From contig JAJUIT010000002.1 in assembly GCA_029267465.1 (NCBI GenBank), positions 1-62,767 of the forward strand: 62,767 bases of DNA. Direction: 5' to 3'. The notes beneath the pieces are model-generated. The model made no database searches. It saw only the letters and a list, made by a program, of their open reading frames with translations, and had not been told where the DNA came from. The stretch comes from Synergistaceae bacterium. Its GTDB lineage: Bacteria > Synergistota > Synergistia > Synergistales > 79-D21. This document shows, piece by piece, positions 3,401-9,602 of this stretch. Position numbers and translations under genes: made by a program. Numbering within the stretch: the first letter of the stretch is position 1; every line of letters begins with the position of its first letter.

Positions 3401-4501
3401 TTGATCAACCGTTTCCTGATGTCCCGCTTCGGCCCTTCGCTGACCGGAGCGGTCGTGGGGGTTCTCGCCCCCGTCCTCGTTTTTCTGGGCAACCCCGGGA
3501 ACATGGGGGTTTGTGTCGCCTGCTTCGGCAGGGACATCGCCGGCGCACTCGGAATGCATCGGGCAGCCGTCGTCCAGTACCTGAGGCCGGAGATTGCGGG
3601 CTTCATTCTCGGCAGCTTCGTTTCGGCGCTGATTTACCGGGAGTATAAACCCCGGGCTGGATCGGCCCCGATCATCCGTTTCTTCCTGGGCGTGTTCGCC
3701 ATGGTCGGAGCCCTGATCTTCCTGGGCTGCCCGTGGAGGGCCTACTTGCGCCTTTCAGGCGGTGATCTGAACGCTCTCTGGGGAATCGCAGGCCTTGCTG
3801 CGGGAGTCGGCATTGGTATCGCCTTTCTCTGGAACGGCTTCAACCTGGGCCGCAGCGCCCCCACCGCGAAGGCTTCCGGGCTCGTCATGCCCGCCTTCTC
3901 CGTCCTCCTCCTCGTGCTGCTTCTTTTGGCCCCCCAATTCGGGCGGGACGCGGCGGGCCTTCCCACCGGCCCCATCTTCTTCTCGAAGGAAGGCCCCGGC
4001 TCCATGCACGCCCCTGCTTTCATTGCCCTCGGAGCAGGCCTTTTGATCGGGTGGATGGCCCAGCGAAGCCGCTTCTGCACGGTGGGAGCCCTCCGGGATC
4101 TTTTCATGCTGAAGGACCCGCACCTGTTCTACGGGATCCTGGCCCTCCTCGTCGCCGCCATCGGGACCAACGTCGCGCTCGGCCAGTTCAAGCTCGGTTT
4201 CGCGGGCCAGCCCGTGGCCCACACGAACGCCCTCTGGAACTTCCTAGGAATGCTTCTCTCGGGATTGGCCTTCACCCTGGCCGGTGGATGCCCTGGGCGC
4301 CAGCTCATCATGAGCGGCGAGGGAGACAACGACGCGGCGCTTTTCGTGCTGGGGCTGATCGTCGGGGCCGCCGTGGCGCACAATTTCAGCTTCGCCAGCA
4401 GCGCCAAGGGACCTGGTCCCTACGCTGCGGTCGCCTTTGCGGTCGGCATGGTCTTTTGCCTGGCCGTCGGCTTTTTGAACCGCGGACGCGTGTCCGCCTA
4501 G
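3401..4501 (+). CDS. yedE: YedE/FdhT-family selenium/sulfur-compound transport membrane protein
   Basis: 366-aa multi-TM ORF with paired Cys motifs 'FLGCPWR' and 'LAGGCPGRQL'. TTG start with AGGGAGG upstream. Followed by yedF-like and selD genes. Confidence 0.8.
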   Translation: MINRFLMSRFGPSLTGAVVGVLAPVLVFLGNPGNMGVCVACFGRDIAGALGMHRAAVVQYLRPEIAGFILGSFVSALIYREYKPRAGSAPIIRFFLGVFAMVGALIFLGCPWRAYLRLSGGDLNALWGIAGLAAGVGIGIAFLWNGFNLGRSAPTAKASGLVMPAFSVLLLVLLLLAPQFGRDAAGLPTGPIFFSKEGPGSMHAPAFIALGAGLLIGWMAQRSRFCTVGALRDLFMLKDPHLFYGILALLVAAIGTNVALGQFKLGFAGQPVAHTNALWNFLGMLLSGLAFTLAGGCPGRQLIMSGEGDNDAALFVLGLIVGAAVAHNFSFASSAKGPGPYAAVAFAVGMVFCLAVGFLNRGRVSA

Positions 4502-4515
4502 GGAGGGATTCGGTC

Positions 4516-4737
4516 ATGACTGATAAGATACTCGTGGACGCGCGGGGACTTTCCTGCCCGCAGCCCGTCCTGGAAACGAAAGCCGCCCTGGAATCCGCAA
4601 GGGGAAACACCGTCGAAGTCCTGGTCGACACCGTCACTTCAAGGGAAAACGTCCTCCGGCTGGCTTCCCGGATGAACTGGAAGGGGACCTGGGAGGAAAC
4701 ACAGGAAGGAACATTCCGCATCACCCTGGAAAAATAG
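4516..4737 (+). CDS. yedF: TusA/SirA-like sulfurtransferase-fold protein (YedF-like)
   Basis: 73 aa starting 'MTDKILVDARGLSCPQPVLETK' (CPxP motif). GGGAGGGA lies upstream of ATG 4516. It is the in-frame 3' part of track ORF 4051-4737. Confidence 0.75.
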   Translation: MTDKILVDARGLSCPQPVLETKAALESARGNTVEVLVDTVTSRENVLRLASRMNWKGTWEETQEGTFRITLEK

Positions 4738-4783
4738 GCTCCACAATGGGAATTCGGACCCCCCAAAAAGGAGGCGATCCTCC

Positions 4784-5818
4784 GTGAGAAGGCTGACGGA
4801 GATGGCGCGGACCAGCGGCTGAGCGGCCAAGATCGGTCCGGCGGACCTGGAAAAACTGTTAAAATCCCTGAAACCCGATACCGGGGGACGCCTGCTGACC
4901 GGTTGGGACCACGGGGAGGATGCCGCGCTGTGGGCCATCGACGAAAACCGGGTCGGGATCCTGACGCTGGATTTCATCACCCCCATCGTGGACGACCCTG
5001 AACTTTGGGGGCAAATCGCCGCGGCCAACGCCCTGAGCGACGTTTTCGCCATGGGGGGAAAGCCTTTTGTCGCTCTCAACATCGTGGGTTTCCCGGTCCA
5101 CTGCGAACCCCTCGAACTGCTCGAAGCCGTACTAAAAGGCGGGCAGTCGAAGGTCATCGAAGCGGGAGCCGTCCTGGCCGGCGGCCACAGCGTGGAAGAC
5201 GAGGAACCCAAGTACGGACTGGCGGTATTCGGCGAAGCTGAAAAGGCAAAAATCTGGCGCGTGTCAGGGGCTCGCCCCGGGGACGTCCTGATCCTCACAA
5301 AGCCCCTGGGAACCGGGCTCTGCACCACGGCAATCAAGGCCGGCATGGCGGACCTGCTGGACACGAAACCCGTGTTCGATTCCATGGCCCGGCTGAATGA
5401 CCTGCCGCGCCACCTGGACAGGGAACTTCACCAATCGATCCATGCCTGCACGGACGTAACAGGCTTCGGACTTGCGGGACACCTCCTTGACATGCTTTCC
5501 GGGTACAGGGTCGACTGCCGGCTCGATCCCGAGGCACTGCCGGCCTTCAAGGGCGTCCTGGACGTGGCCGACCTGGGATTGATTCCAGCCGGGGCCTACC
5601 GAAACCGCGAACTCTATTCCTCCCGGATTGACAATCTGGAGAAGGCCCCCCTGAGCCTCCAGGACCTGCTCTTCGATCCCCAGACCTCGGGAGGGCTGCT
5701 GCTGGCCGTGGACCCCGAAGCGGCACAGGCCTTCTTGGAGCTCTGCCAAAGCGGGTGCGCGCCGGAAAGCCGGGCGATCGGACGTTTCCTGGATGGAACC
5801 GGGAGAATCCGTTTCTGA
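4784..5818 (+). CDS. selD: Selenide, water dikinase (selenophosphate synthetase), selenocysteine-containing: in-frame TGA at 4820-4822
   Basis: The track ORF (4988-5818) has SelD/AIR-synthase-like motifs. Extending upstream in frame gives V-RRLTEMARTSG-U-AAKIGPADLEKLL, matching the SelD N-terminal G(C/U)xxK motif. AAAAAGGAGG sits 9 nt before GTG 4784. Confidence 0.85.
4827..4850 (+). promoter_or_regulatory. Candidate bacterial SECIS hairpin downstream of the selD UGA
   Basis: CCA[agauc]GGUCC-ggc-GGACC-UGG. The apical stem starts 12 nt after the UGA. Confidence 0.4.
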
Positions 5819-5843
5819 AGCTGGCCTTTCGAAAGGAGGAACC

Positions 5844-7022
5844 ATGGAACAGGAACGCTCTCTTTACCTGAACAACGCGGCCACGTCGTGGCCGAAACCG
5901 CGATGCGTTGCCGAAGCGATGTCGGCCTTCCTGGAAGCGAGGGGAGCCAACCTCGCCAGGGGATCGGCATCTACGCGCGACCTCGACACCCTCGACATGG
6001 TCACGACCTGCCGCTTGAAAATCGCCGCCTTCTTCGGGGGACCGTCAACGGATCCCCGAAATGTGACCTTTACGGCCAACGTGACCGAGGCTCTGAACAT
6101 CGTCCTGAAGGGCTTCCTGAAACCAGGCATGCGGGCCGCCACGTCCTCTATGGAGCACAACGCCGTCATGCGGCCGCTACGCCGCCTGGAAAGCGAGGGA
6201 GTCTCGGTCACCGTGATGCCCTGCACGAAGGAAGGAGTCCTAGAACCCCATACGCTTGAAAGGGAACTTGGGAAGGGGCTCGACCTGGTCGTATTCACCC
6301 ACGCGAGCAACGTCTGTGGAACCGTGCAGGACCTGGACCTTCTTGCCCCGCTCTGCAATTCGGCCGGTGTCCCGCTGGTCCTGGACACGGCCCAGACGGC
6401 AGGGGTTCTGCCCATCGACGCCGCCCGCTGGAACCTGGCCGCCTGCTGCTTCACGGGACACAAGGGCCTGATGGGCCCCCAGGGGACGGGCGGAATCCTG
6501 TGGAGGGAAGATTTTGCAGCGGCGTGCCGTCCCCTGATCGAAGGGGGAACCGGCAGCTTTTCCCACGAGGAGGTTCAGCCTTCGGTCCTTCCAGACAAAT
6601 TTGAGGCCGGAACGCCGAACCTGCCCGGGCTCGCCGGTCTTTTGGCCTCGCTGAACTGGCTGGAGGAAAAGGAAGTGGAAACCATCCGCCGGAGGGAGGA
6701 AGAACTGGGCATTAGACTGCTCGAAGGGCTTTTACAAATACCCGGGATCAGACTCTATGGGAAACGGACGATGAGGGGCCGTCTTCCCGTCTTCGCCGTC
6801 AACTTCGAAAACCTGGACAACGGCCGTGCCGCCCTGGAACTGGCCGACCGCTGGGGTATCGAGACCCGCCCCGGCCTGCACTGCGCACCGGCCGCCCATA
6901 AGACCCTTGGATCGTTTCCCCAGGGGGCCCTCCGAATCGCCCCCGGTTTCTTCAACACCGAGGAGGAAATCGATCTCTGCCTGGAAGCCCTGCGGGTCCT
7001 CAGCCGTGAACATCATCCCTGA
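5844..7022 (+). CDS. Class-V aminotransferase: cysteine desulfurase / selenocysteine lyase-like protein
   Basis: 'LYLNNAATSWPKP', 'FTHASNVCG' and the PLP-Lys region 'FTGHKGLMGPQGTGG'. GGAGGA lies upstream of ATG 5844. Sits immediately after selD. Confidence 0.8.
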   Translation: MEQERSLYLNNAATSWPKPRCVAEAMSAFLEARGANLARGSASTRDLDTLDMVTTCRLKIAAFFGGPSTDPRNVTFTANVTEALNIVLKGFLKPGMRAATSSMEHNAVMRPLRRLESEGVSVTVMPCTKEGVLEPHTLERELGKGLDLVVFTHASNVCGTVQDLDLLAPLCNSAGVPLVLDTAQTAGVLPIDAARWNLAACCFTGHKGLMGPQGTGGILWREDFAAACRPLIEGGTGSFSHEEVQPSVLPDKFEAGTPNLPGLAGLLASLNWLEEKEVETIRRREEELGIRLLEGLLQIPGIRLYGKRTMRGRLPVFAVNFENLDNGRAALELADRWGIETRPGLHCAPAAHKTLGSFPQGALRIAPGFFNTEEEIDLCLEALRVLSREHHP

Positions 7023-7139
7023 GCTTCGAGAACCCCGGCACCCGGACGGCGGTCCGCGACGCGGATCGAGAGGCGCCCGACTTCAAGACCCGAAATCCTG
7101 ACATCTCTGCTTCAGTTTTGTTTCAAGTACTAAACAGCC

Positions 7140-7168
7140 TTGTCTTTACCTGGAAGAACGTCTAAAAT
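7140..7168 (+). promoter_or_regulatory. Candidate sigma70 promoter: TTGTCT, 17-nt spacer, TAAAAT
   Basis: Hexamers at 7140-7145 and 7163-7168, in a locally AT-richer stretch between the desulfurase gene and the TnpB-like gene. Confidence 0.4.
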
Positions 7169-7266
7169 AACAGGTGAAAAGGGGCTCGGGGGGATGACAG
7201 GATGCCGGGAAAGAACGGCAGGATAGCTCCGGAAAACCCGAAAAGGCGAACAGAGTCCGCTCTCGA

Positions 7267-7299
7267 GGCGGCAGGGGATTTTTCTCCCTGCCGCCTTTT
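7267..7299 (+). terminator. Intrinsic terminator / attenuator hairpin
   Basis: Perfect 10-bp stem GGCGGCAGGG (7267-7276) / CCCTGCCGCC (7286-7295), 9-nt loop, then TTTT-G-TGTT. There is no T-tract on the opposite strand. Confidence 0.6.
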
Positions 7300-7317
7300 G
7301 TGTTCTACGGGGAGGTG

Positions 7318-8652
7318 ATGACCGTGGAAATGAACCAAAAAGATAGGGCCTTGGCCATCGACATCGGCGACACCTACCTGTTTGCGATGATTTCCAACGC
7401 ACCCCTGTCCCGAGCGGTCCTCGTGAAAAACCCGCTCGACCGTGCAGCGATCGACCGGGCACGGCGTTCCATGCAGTCGGACCCCGAGAAATTCCACTCG
7501 GAAATGGGGCGCATCGCCTCCTGCGTGGACGCGACCTGCGACCTGGTCCTGAGAAAATGCCTGGAGTGGCAGGTTGGTTCGATCGCCATCGGCACCCGCT
7601 CCATCAAGAACCCGTTCTCCATCCGCCCCCGGGCCCTCCGGGACAATCCGCTCCTCAACCTGAGCCTTCACTTGCTGAGCACGCTTCGTTTCCGTTGCGC
7701 CCTGGCAAGGATCGACGTCCACCTCGTCGATGAAACGAATACCAGCCGCATCGACGCCCTCGGCCTGGAACCCGTTGCGGGGACTGGAAGCCGAAGGAAA
7801 GACCGGGCGACGGGCCGCCTGACACGAAAGGAGTACCATAGCACCACGGGCGCTGCGATCCACCGGGATATCAACGCCGCCATCAACATCGGGAGGCTGG
7901 TTTTCGGGGATTCCTTCGCGGAGCCCATCCTCCGGGGGCGCCAGTGGGAGCACCCGGAGGTGGAGTTTATCGAGATCGAAAGCCCGGCCCAGGAGGTCCG
8001 CTCAAAGGCCTTTTCCCGGCGTCTCGCGGCCGAGGAGGTCGACAGCCTCGTGGCCGAACTTGCCGGGATCGCCCTCGAGGAGGCTCGGGATGCTTTCCTC
8101 CGGCAAAAGCTGGAGGAAAGCCTGGCCGGGCTTATCCACACCGGACTGGATTTCGGCCAGCTCGACAAGGAGTCGGCACTTCAGGCGGAGACCGTTCGCG
8201 GGCTCAACACGAAGCGGCTCAGAAGGTACCTGAAGCGACGAAGGGACCTGGAGGAAAACGCCAGGAAGCTAGGACTCGTCGTGTCCAGGAGGGCGAAAAA
8301 GGTCCTCGTCGAATGGGAGCCCGGCGAAGAGGAGGTTCTCCAGGCCGAGGGAGAAGCCCTGGCGCTGGAGGCCGAGAAGGGAGGGGCCCGTTCGCTCCTG
8401 TCAGCCGCCCTTTCGCTGCAATCCCGAAGCGAGGCCCGGGCCGCCCGCAGGGAAACCCTTGAAAAGATCCTCACCGAGCAGGTCCAGGCGGGCACCACGT
8501 ATCGCCTGGATTCCCCGCCGGCCCGCGTCCGGTTCATCCGCACCCGCCGGGACACCTACGCCTTCCCCGACATCCTGGAGGTCCTGCCTCCGAGTGCGAG
8601 GCCCTACCTGGTCGAGACGCCCGCCCGAAAACCGGTCCCGGTCAGCGGCTGA
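7318..8652 (+). CDS. TnpB/Cas12-like RuvC-fold protein. It lacks the N-terminal WED/REC region, Zn-finger cysteines and RuvC-II Glu, and carries a ~245-aa charged helical C-terminal extension
   Basis: Motifs in TnpB order: 'ALAIDIGD', 'IDVHLVDETNTSRI', 'IHRDINAAINIGR'. Third-position GC and a non-R/G/P composition support real coding. Start is uncertain (ATG 7318, GTG 7324 or ATG 7330 after GGGGAGG); the track start 7300 lies inside the terminator tail. Confidence 0.6.
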   Translation: MTVEMNQKDRALAIDIGDTYLFAMISNAPLSRAVLVKNPLDRAAIDRARRSMQSDPEKFHSEMGRIASCVDATCDLVLRKCLEWQVGSIAIGTRSIKNPFSIRPRALRDNPLLNLSLHLLSTLRFRCALARIDVHLVDETNTSRIDALGLEPVAGTGSRRKDRATGRLTRKEYHSTTGAAIHRDINAAINIGRLVFGDSFAEPILRGRQWEHPEVEFIEIESPAQEVRSKAFSRRLAAEEVDSLVAELAGIALEEARDAFLRQKLEESLAGLIHTGLDFGQLDKESALQAETVRGLNTKRLRRYLKRRRDLEENARKLGLVVSRRAKKVLVEWEPGEEEVLQAEGEALALEAEKGGARSLLSAALSLQSRSEARAARRETLEKILTEQVQAGTTYRLDSPPARVRFIRTRRDTYAFPDILEVLPPSARPYLVETPARKPVPVSG

Positions 8653-9523
8653 CCTGCCAGACGCCCGCAGTGATCAGAGCCGCCCCCAGGATCATGGCCG
8701 CAGAAACGGGTTCGCCCAGACCTGAAACCGCAAGAAGGGTGGCAGATACCGGGTTGAGGTACATCAGGACCCCCGCCTGCGAAGCGGGAAGGATTTTCAG
8801 TGCGTCGTACCAGAAAACGTAGGCCAGCCCCGAGCAGAAAATCCCCAGGAAAAGGACGGACACCCACGCCTGGAAGTTCATCCGGAGAATCGTCCCCAGG
8901 TCTCCCTTCACCGCGAACAGGGCGGTTGTCATGAGCCATCCGGCGAGCATGACCTTGAGCATCATGGGGGCCGGCTCGTGCCGCTTGAGAAAATTGCGGG
9001 ACATGACGCTGAAGACGGCCCAGTTGAGGGCGCTCAGGAGAACGAGGAGGTCTCCGAAAGAACCGGGGTTCGAAAAGCGCAGGCGGCCAGGATCCCCCCT
9101 TGTGACGACGAGAAGGACGCCGCAGGCGCCGCAGGCCAGGCCGAACCAGCGGCGGAAGGACATTTTCTCTCCTAGGAACAGGCTTCCCAGGATCGCGATG
9201 AAAACGGGCATGCTGGAAATGATCCAGGCCGACGTCGCGGCCTGGGCGGTTTTCAGTCCCGTGCTCTGAACGAGATGGTGAAACGGGACACCGAGAAACC
9301 CGAGGAGGACGACAAGCCCCCATTCCCGAGCCGATAGGGGGTCCTTTTCCCTGCGGAGGGCAGAAAAACCCCAGAGCACCGCCGTTCCGAGCCCGAAGCG
9401 CAGCCAGACGAGAGGAAGCGGGGTCAGGGTCCGGAGGGCCACCTTGATGGCCACGAACGATGCCCCCCAGGAAACCGCCGCGGCGATTCCGGCAGCCAGG
9501 GCCTTCCTCCTTTTCCGTTCCAT
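8642..9523 (-). CDS. EamA/DMT-family transporter
   Basis: 10-TM-like ORF with two EamA repeats. Start trimmed to 'MERKRRKALAAGIAAAVSWGASFVAIK', with GAGGAGGG upstream. Confidence 0.8.
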   Translation of the reverse strand: MERKRRKALAAGIAAAVSWGASFVAIKVALRTLTPLPLVWLRFGLGTAVLWGFSALRREKDPLSAREWGLVVLLGFLGVPFHHLVQSTGLKTAQAATSAWIISSMPVFIAILGSLFLGEKMSFRRWFGLACGACGVLLVVTRGDPGRLRFSNPGSFGDLLVLLSALNWAVFSVMSRNFLKRHEPAPMMLKVMLAGWLMTTALFAVKGDLGTILRMNFQAWVSVLFLGIFCSGLAYVFWYDALKILPASQAGVLMYLNPVSATLLAVSGLGEPVSAAMILGAALITAGVWQVSR

Positions 9524-9602
9524 GGGTTTTCCCTCCTCTGCAGGGCCATTATCGGCATTGACCCCGGGGAGGCGCAAGGGAATTTCATGCTAAACTCAAG
9601 AC

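Follow-up and report, generated by a model that had tools for sequence, protein, structure and literature searches.

What can the catalytic half of a TnpB nuclease do in a cell once the half that holds its guide RNA is gone? This question is raised by a gene encoding 444 residues in a 62,767-nt stretch of DNA from a Synergistaceae bacterium, the whole of which is called the window here. TnpB is the ancestor of Cas12. To our knowledge, documented domestications of TnpB mostly keep RNA guidance, and forms consisting of RuvC alone have so far been mentioned merely in passing. The RuvC-only family of this gene appears to take the opposite route. Its guide half is discarded and its rearranged catalytic centre is kept under very strong purifying selection, which suggests that in cells the TnpB RuvC domain is useful by itself, through an activity that needs no guide. 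An earlier note, made from the sequence alone, had described the same gene as a domesticated RuvC module stripped of its guide-binding lobe, its RuvC-II Glu and its zinc finger and fused to a long helical tail. Coordinates are positions in the window and residues are numbered from the ATG at 7318, six lower than in that note, whose Asp21, Gly98 and Asp190 are D15, G92 and D184. The features of the locus are collected in Table 1.

Residues 1-215 are a TnpB/Cas12-type RuvC domain, as Pfam, a profile search and Foldseek agree. All the motifs that the earlier note had listed by eye are present, in the I-II-III order of the split RuvC domain of TnpB and Cas12. The protein matches Pfam PF07282 (Cas12f1-like TNB) with E=6e-6 and 26.8 bits against a cut-off of 26.3. 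A profile hidden Markov model of the family, run against 1.84 billion representative proteins, gave 209 matches and recovered ~190 full-length TnpBs (E<1e-3, mostly 400-450 aa; best E 1e-13). The profile alignments pair query residues ~8-205 with TnpB residues ~190-400, from RuvC-I through RuvC-III, with E values of 1e-9 to 1e-13. In an AlphaFold2 (AF2) model the core reaches a predicted local distance difference test (pLDDT) score of 70-87, and Foldseek comparison of this model with the PDB places ISFba1 TnpB (8iaz) first (E 8e-4), followed by Cas12f, RuvC, Fanzor2 and IsrB. Other searches gave little: a single-protein sequence search of the PDB found nothing, PADLOC had no match, in NCBIfam only the final C-terminal part of guided_TnpB was matched, weakly (19 bits vs a cut-off of 100), and PHROGs gave a weak match to a generic transposase family and nothing else. 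The source records label the RuvC-only family merely 'transposase' or 'hypothetical protein'.

The WED/REC guide-RNA lobe is wholly absent from the predicted protein. Only 14 residues stand ahead of D15, the first ~190 residues of 17 full-length TnpBs have no counterpart when aligned with it, and the DNA 5' of the gene is occupied by a leader and then by another gene. The description of a stand-alone module without this lobe is thereby borne out, and the protein falls outside the functional RNA-guided TnpB/Cas12 nucleases, which have both WED and REC. It is equally distinct from TldR, in which the catalytic residues are lost and WED/REC and the guide RNA are kept. A 3' omega-RNA is likewise missing, as had been proposed, because there is no space for it beside the convergent EamA ORF (8642..9577, - strand), which overlaps the 3' end of the gene by 11 nt, and because the gene shows no extra constraint at synonymous sites, where codon identity is flat at 0.46-0.68. 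Furthermore, the gene lacks the TnpA, subterminal hairpin ends and mobile copies that define IS200/IS605-IS607 elements. With a 215-aa core, relatives of 241-289 aa and an active-looking site, it corresponds instead to the RuvC-only non-mobile TnpBs of ~220 aa.

The catalytic site of this core follows a rearranged plan. The core alignment comprised the window protein, 7 other short-family members and the 17 best full-length TnpB matches; in it G17, G92, E139, T142, D184 and N186 are invariant and D15 is nearly so. In a profile-to-PDB alignment, G92 coincides exactly with the catalytic Glu of Cas12f and TnpB proteins of solved structure ('IavGkn' vs 'IQMEDL'), and E139 with the Pro of 'IDPxYTS'. 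Among full-length TnpBs, the 17 nearest read IxIGxNxxWKQ ... (E/D)E.YTSK ... NADxNG and contain no CxxC pairs. Altae-Tran et al. 2023 (PMC10691335) described clades that have Gly in place of the RuvC-II Glu, compensated by an alternative Glu, and likened this arrangement to RuvX, whose catalytic Glu lies on β-5; they also noted the loss of zinc fingers in some large TnpB branches. Jiang et al. 2023 (PMC10530073) found that all rearranged TnpBs and Fanzors have the alternative Glu ~45 residues downstream, that its mutation abolishes Fanzor cleavage, and that the rearranged TvTnpB gave TAM-specific cleavage.

The window protein shows this same arrangement, a non-acidic residue (Gly or Pro) at the Glu position followed by a conserved Glu. 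G92 and E139 are 47 residues apart, and E139 comes directly after a predicted strand (residues 133-137), which is consistent with a location on β-5 in the AF2 model. Owing to this spacing, the position of E139 after the strand and the match to the published rearranged site, the triad D15/E139/D184 is most likely intact, and its conservation indicates that the protein probably retains nuclease activity. The earlier note was thus right that Gly92 occupies the RuvC-II Glu position, but a loss of catalysis is not supported, for the invariant E139 lies 47 residues on. It was also right that the 38 residues separating TS from HRD are free of Cys, but this is not special to the protein, since the 17 closest full-length TnpBs are also without CxxC pairs. 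Both traits are best read as inherited from the TnpB2/RIIr type and not as losses.

The gene is a strongly conserved, vertically inherited, domesticated host gene of a Synergistota lineage. Thirteen full-length homologs, 71-96% identical and 442-444 aa long (N-terminal gene-call extensions aside), all possess the whole tail, and an ortholog alignment identifies ATG 7318 as the conserved start. At a synonymous divergence (dS) of ~1, the ratio of nonsynonymous to synonymous substitution (dN/dS) is 0.06 in the core (residues 1-215) and 0.22 in the tail (0.28 for residues 216-330 and 0.15 for residues 331-444), while adjacent housekeeping genes have values of 0.08-0.19. Protein identity to orthologs is 74-85% for the RuvC-only gene vs 71-94% for its neighbours. 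The only apparent frameshift, in locus L012, comes from an assembly N. At least 10 Synergistota metagenome genomes have the gene as a single copy and in strict synteny. All named ortholog records are Synergistetes/Synergistaceae metagenome-assembled genomes (MAGs), and a single-protein query of GTDB genomes returned three matches, a Synergistetes, a Synergistaceae and a Synergistales MAG. The 10-kb flanks of relatives hold no tnpA, transposon ends were not found, there is no second copy of the gene, and the chromosomal neighbours are the same in relatives. Synteny, copy number and dN/dS together uphold the view that the gene is domesticated and really translated.

Outside this close clade lies a wider family of 241-289-aa proteins that start at RuvC-I (P0016-P0021, P0023 and P0025, E 1e-25 to 1e-74). 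A second search added further members (P0164-P0173), and a family-profile search of a word-indexed database brought almost no gain. Divergence within the family reaches 26% protein identity, distant members lying at 26-46%. The derived motifs GxRSIKNP[FY], NPLLNL and [HD]RDxN were not seen in ordinary TnpBs, and the C-termini are variable. The earlier note had asked whether the short N-terminus and the Gly are conserved; both are common to this wider ~250-aa family. Short TnpB-like matches of 158-263 aa (P0046, P0052, P0094, P0139, P0154 and others) were rejected as members, as they keep ordinary TnpB2 motifs and look like fragments or truncated copies. In the clade of short forms (~260 aa), a DEAD-box helicase gene always lies 3' of the RuvC-only gene, on the same strand and after a gap of 110-150 nt, and a PolX-type polymerase gene (HHH_8/PHP) is divergent and upstream in four of five loci. 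The arrangement may tie the gene functionally to RNA or DNA metabolism, or be plain synteny.

The tail of the window protein is, by contrast with the constant RuvC core, what appears to be a variable add-on. It is rich in L, E, A and R with a net charge of ~0, and its full length in all 13 homologs of the clade settles whether it is conserved among relatives. The profile search of 1.84 billion proteins found no homolog of the tail outside the window's clade, and no Pfam, PHROG or PADLOC family matches it. Modelled on its own with AF2 (pLDDT ~62), the tail is predicted to comprise four long helices and, at its end, a small beta unit; Foldseek gave no match with E<1 for this model. The C-terminal extensions of P0022 (465 aa) and P0024 (369 aa) are unrelated to it, which suggests repeated, independent gain of C-terminal modules by the RuvC core.

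Directly 5' of the gene stands a conserved leader composed of a promoter, an upstream open reading frame (uORF) and a terminator, an element absent from the earlier note. The promoter-like site is the sole such match in 6900-8800 (0.0 expected in shuffles), both of its hexamers are conserved in 11 orthologous loci, and equivalent sites with 9-10 of 12 matches occur 5' of the distant members L003, L013, L014 and L016. Pairwise identity was computed from 7 distinct orthologous loci, with 4-fold degenerate sites of the gene as neutral reference: it is 0.91 in the terminator region, 0.74 in the promoter and 0.71 in the block of Shine-Dalgarno (SD) sequence and ATG, vs 0.49 at the 4-fold sites. The 5' ~18 nt of the leader (0.62) are among its least conserved parts. 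The SD ahead of the main ATG is the same in all leaders that reach this point except L004, which has AGGGAGG. In the distant L013, L045 and L046 the terminator stem is kept by compensatory changes, from GGCGGCAG/CTGCCGCC to GGCGACAG/CTGTCGCC. The same layout of promoter, ~100-150-nt RNA and terminator is found in the distant L003, L013, L014/L015, L016, L045 and L046 with different leader sequences. A metagenome scan with the leader motif, which is unique within the window, gave 28 loci. The full hairpin is present in only four, each immediately preceding an ortholog; both terminator and gene are missing from the remaining 24. Rfam returned nothing better than E=3 for 6900-7450, and its matches reflect the terminator hairpin only.

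An SD and a uORF whose end falls at, within or shortly after the terminator are found in 15 of the 16 leaders examined, L004 having none that satisfies these terms. In the AT-rich clade the uORF takes the form AAGGAG-N8-12-ATG, with 20-23 codons and a stop at the hairpin base. In the window's clade it has 38-40 codons and traverses the hairpin; in eight of the ten loci checked its TGA stop overlaps the main ATG. The uORF is presumably translated, and the layout would make the leader a translation-coupled attenuator; it may represent an undescribed attenuator of this type or a small RNA. A conserved leader peptide as protein partner was rejected because the uORF peptide sequences are not conserved between clades. 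RNAalifold folds the close-clade leader into a plausible P1, hairpin and terminator; a defined aptamer structure is not claimed, because covariation is near nil and the helices are invariant.

These observations are best accommodated, and with fair probability, by a guide-independent, metal-dependent nuclease, a bare TnpB2-type RuvC domain with a TNB-like insert, that would be gated by its leader and use its tail for oligomerisation or docking. It would derive from a rearranged-site tnpB (TnpB2/RIIr) through deletion of the whole N-terminal WED/REC lobe, leaving a 215-aa RNase-H-fold RuvC domain with D15, E139, D184 and the TNB-like insert. Cleavage would depend on metal and proceed without an omega-RNA guide, and the substrate would be chosen via nucleic-acid structure or partners and not by base-pairing. 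Either DNA or RNA could be that substrate, because TnpB RuvC domains cut both: the TnpB RuvC cleaves DNA and also processes its own mRNA (PMC10278001). The window's clade would have gained its ~230-aa helical tail most likely for oligomerisation or for docking of a partner or substrate, and in other lineages a tail is missing or is unrelated to this one. The promoter would drive a ~125-nt RNA bearing the SD, the uORF and a strong terminator 16 nt before the main ATG. Since the close clade leaves no space for a second promoter, nuclease mRNA would be made only when transcription reads through the terminator, an event most plausibly coupled to uORF translation.

Several points weigh against this proposal. 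The AF2 model is of only moderate confidence (mean pLDDT 59), and across clades no conserved neighbour indicates a pathway. The uORF frame would be open by chance with a probability of 0.14-0.43 per locus, open frames being cheap in GC-rich DNA, and two of the 11 loci in the close clade (L002 and L004) have a broken frame. Leader covariation is minimal, with 2 of 25 pairs, and the helices are near-invariant in close relatives. Finally, an unguided version may be a poor nuclease on free DNA, because published rearranged-site enzymes are without collateral ssDNase activity (PMC10530073).

Four other explanations were weighed. A decaying, 5'-truncated tnpB pseudogene with a tail frame open by chance, which the earlier note had named as the finding that would overturn it, has the truncated architecture as its sole point in favour and is virtually eliminated: the full-length 444-aa orthologs are intact and without frameshifts, that of L012 being an assembly N, dN/dS is low in core and tail alike, and synteny is kept. 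A catalytically dead structural or regulatory protein, whose RuvC fold would persist purely as a scaffold for binding, like that of TldR or Cas12k, was the view of the earlier note. The Gly at the canonical Glu position and the absent zinc finger speak for it, and many exapted TnpBs are inactivated, according to passages of PMC10691335. It is nevertheless improbable, for D15, E139 and D184 remain invariant or nearly so down to 26% identity and match an experimentally active rearranged triad, whereas inactivated lineages typically lose such residues. Known dead derivatives, moreover, keep WED/REC and a guide RNA, and the window protein has neither. The intact triad would suit a toxin or defence effector, a potentially lethal unguided nuclease silenced by the terminator and released upon disturbed translation or transcription coupling, for instance through phage infection, antibiotics or starvation. 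The terminator-gated uORF leader resembles ribosome-sensing attenuators, and toxin roles are proposed for some exapted active TnpBs in passages of the same paper (PMC10691335). PADLOC gives no match, however, the gene adjoins no antitoxin or immunity gene and lies outside any defence island, and its stable housekeeping synteny, core dN/dS of 0.06 and vertical inheritance are atypical for fast-turnover defence genes, so that a role of this kind is rather unlikely.

The leader itself raises the last of these alternatives, in which the RuvC core binds the ~125-nt leader RNA as its cognate non-coding partner, be it guide, scaffold or autoregulatory ligand, in a radically minimised OMEGA-like module. 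A promoter, ~100-150-nt RNA and terminator stand directly 5' of the gene in 16 of 16 loci, down to 26-46% protein identity, and the leader is found only beside the RuvC-only gene. The terminator region is conserved far above the neutral reference, the 5' ~18 nt are poorly conserved, as a guide segment might be, and the RuvC of TnpB binds and processes its own RNA (PMC10278001). On the other hand, nothing remains of the WED/REC lobe, which accommodates the omega-RNA and the guide-target duplex. The close clade has its terminator 16 nt from the main ATG and no space for a second promoter, as is classic for a cis-acting attenuator; an SD and uORF are present in all but one of the leaders, and between clades the leader sequence is conserved only around the terminator. 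In addition, complementarity of leader 16-mers to the rest of the 62-kb window is at chance (6 matches vs 5.45 in shuffles), and no Rfam family matches. Such an RNA partner is therefore unlikely. It is correspondingly doubtful that core and leader RNA form a functional pair, the RNA being bound or cleaved as guide, scaffold or autoregulatory substrate; the alternative is a guide-free Synergistota housekeeping nuclease under a new translation-sensing attenuator. If it were true, the pair would be the smallest RNA-associated descendant of TnpB, with a 5'-encoded RNA and no WED/REC.

The surroundings of the gene are those of a chromosomal locus. In the window's clade the order is Sulf_transp, TusA, SelD, Aminotran_5, (Voltage_CLC) and the RuvC-only gene, then convergent EamA, EamA, homoserine dehydrogenase and AFOR, and this order recurs in all contigs long enough to judge. 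The neighbourhood is identical in L001, L002, L004-L012, L023, L024 and L043. The 5' genes at 3401-7022 form a putative selenium/sulfur-handling cluster, syntenic in all relatives, with a Sulf_transp permease, TusA, SelD (AIRS/AIRS_C) and an Aminotran_5 gene resembling cysteine desulfurase or selenocysteine lyase. In all relatives a 465-aa Voltage_CLC channel gene stands between Aminotran_5 and the leader. It is cleanly missing from the window, where, on comparison of 7022-7088 with L008 2262-3793, the only parts that still align are the leader and the final ~13 nt at the 3' end of the channel gene. Several long ORFs overlap the main gene, at 7162-7953 (-), 7668-8168 (-), 7944-8462 (+) and 8181-8555 (-). 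Their translations are rich in R, G, P and S, as is typical of GC-rich non-coding frames, and the strong dN/dS signal belongs to the + frame from 7318. Automatic gene calls in some metagenomes (P0008, P0010 and P0013, of 478-497 aa; also L008 3913-4014) start 34-53 codons further 5', through the GC-rich leader and terminator; such extensions are not conserved and are probably artefacts.

Table 1. Features of the RuvC-only gene and its leader in the window, with corresponding loci of relatives
Feature	Position	Strand	Remarks
Promoter-like site, sigma-70 type	7140..7168	+	TTGTCT-17-TAAAAT; for leader and gene
Leader RNA, ~125-130 nt	7171..7301	+	Ends in intrinsic terminator; 59/136 alignment columns invariant
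Putative uORF, 38 codons	7202..7318	+	SD-like GGGGGG 8 nt upstream; crosses terminator; TGA overlaps main ATG
Intrinsic terminator	7265..7301	+	13-bp stem GAGGCGGCAGGGG/CTCCCTGCCGCCTT and U tract; alternatively bounded as 7265-7297; 16 nt 5' of main ATG; from terminator scan
Shine-Dalgarno GGGGAGG	7309..7315	+	2 nt 5' of ATG 7318; same in 10/11 leaders reaching here
Main gene	7318-8652	+	444 aa; ORF-list frame 7300..8652
RuvC core	7318..7962	+	aa 1-215; from TnpB with rearranged active site
D15 codon	7360-7362	+	In AIDIGD, RuvC-I
G92 codon	7591-7593	+	Canonical RuvC-II Glu position; in VGSIAIGTRSIKN (IAIGTRSIKN)
E139 codon	7732-7734	+	Relocated Glu; E139 and T142 in LRFRCALARIDVHLVDETNTS (LVDETNTS)
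Zn-less TNB-like insert	7735-7863	+	aa 140-182
D184 codon	7867-7869	+	In HRDINAAINIGR, RuvC-III
C-terminal tail and stop codon	7963..8652	+	aa 216-444, ~230 aa; clade-specific
Leader loci	L001 9803-10000, L003 1361-1578, L013 6776-7000, L014 6508-6760, L016 6758-7000; window 7140-7317		Also L045, L046
DEAD-box helicase genes	L014 7688-9268, L015 7928-9397, L016 7895-9508, L045 5895-7472, L046 5926-7506		

A comparison with known systems separates what is shared from what is particular to this family. The TnpB2/RIIr proteins (PMC10530073, PMC10691335), which provide the best full-length sequence matches, have the same RuvC fold and motif order, the Gly at the Glu position, a Glu ~45-47 residues downstream in '(D/E)E.xTS', a Cys-free insert between TS and RD/AD and the 'D.N.A.NI.R' end. 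The same rearranged RuvC-II site occurs in Fanzor nucleases. The window protein differs from TnpB2/RIIr in the absence of the ~190-aa WED/REC lobe, in a helical segment from RuvC-I to β-4 that is ~25 aa shorter, and in reading GxRSIKNP[FY] for GxNxxWKQ and HRDxN for NADxN. It is single-copy and vertically inherited, is without omega-RNA, IS ends or tnpA, and has instead a 5' leader and a C-terminal tail.

The claim that the protein differs from every known architecture is not supported, as non-mobile TnpBs consisting of RuvC alone have been noted once before, in Halobacteria (~220 aa, e.g. WP_004214924.1). They are mentioned briefly together with ~280-aa GATase-linked TnpBs of Sulfolobaceae, with no function assigned (PMC10691335). 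Like the window protein, these forms are exapted, non-mobile and reduced to RuvC (or to WED and RuvC) with an apparently active site. They are archaeal, whereas the window family is bacterial (Synergistota), and the comparison is by description only; neither the ~230-aa tail nor the uORF-terminator leader is described for them. TldR and the sigma-E-associated dead Cas12f/TnpB are also domesticated, non-mobile, host-fixed descendants of TnpB. They keep WED/REC and the guide RNA and have lost catalysis, and the window protein is the reverse. RuvC and RuvX/YqgF are small, guide-free, stand-alone nucleases of the RNase-H fold. RuvC structures are among the Foldseek matches (E 6e-3 to 3e-2), and the catalytic Glu of RuvX lies on β-5, as in the rearranged site of the window protein (PMC10691335). 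The sequence profile nonetheless points to TnpB, and the window protein, unlike RuvC and RuvX, has its second and third catalytic residues separated by a TNB insert.

A literature search found no description of the bacterial RuvC-only family, its tail or its leader. An exapted RuvC-only derivative of TnpB as such is thus already known, and published TnpB diversity largely explains the individual oddities of this one. What is new is a Synergistota family whose triad is rearranged yet apparently intact, which is under very strong purifying selection and which has a helical tail specific to one clade and a conserved uORF-terminator leader. The promoter-uORF-terminator leader could show how cells restrain such a nuclease, and the 215-aa core, a compact natural minimal RuvC scaffold with the site type of TnpB2 and Fanzor, could help to dissect the rearranged site alone.

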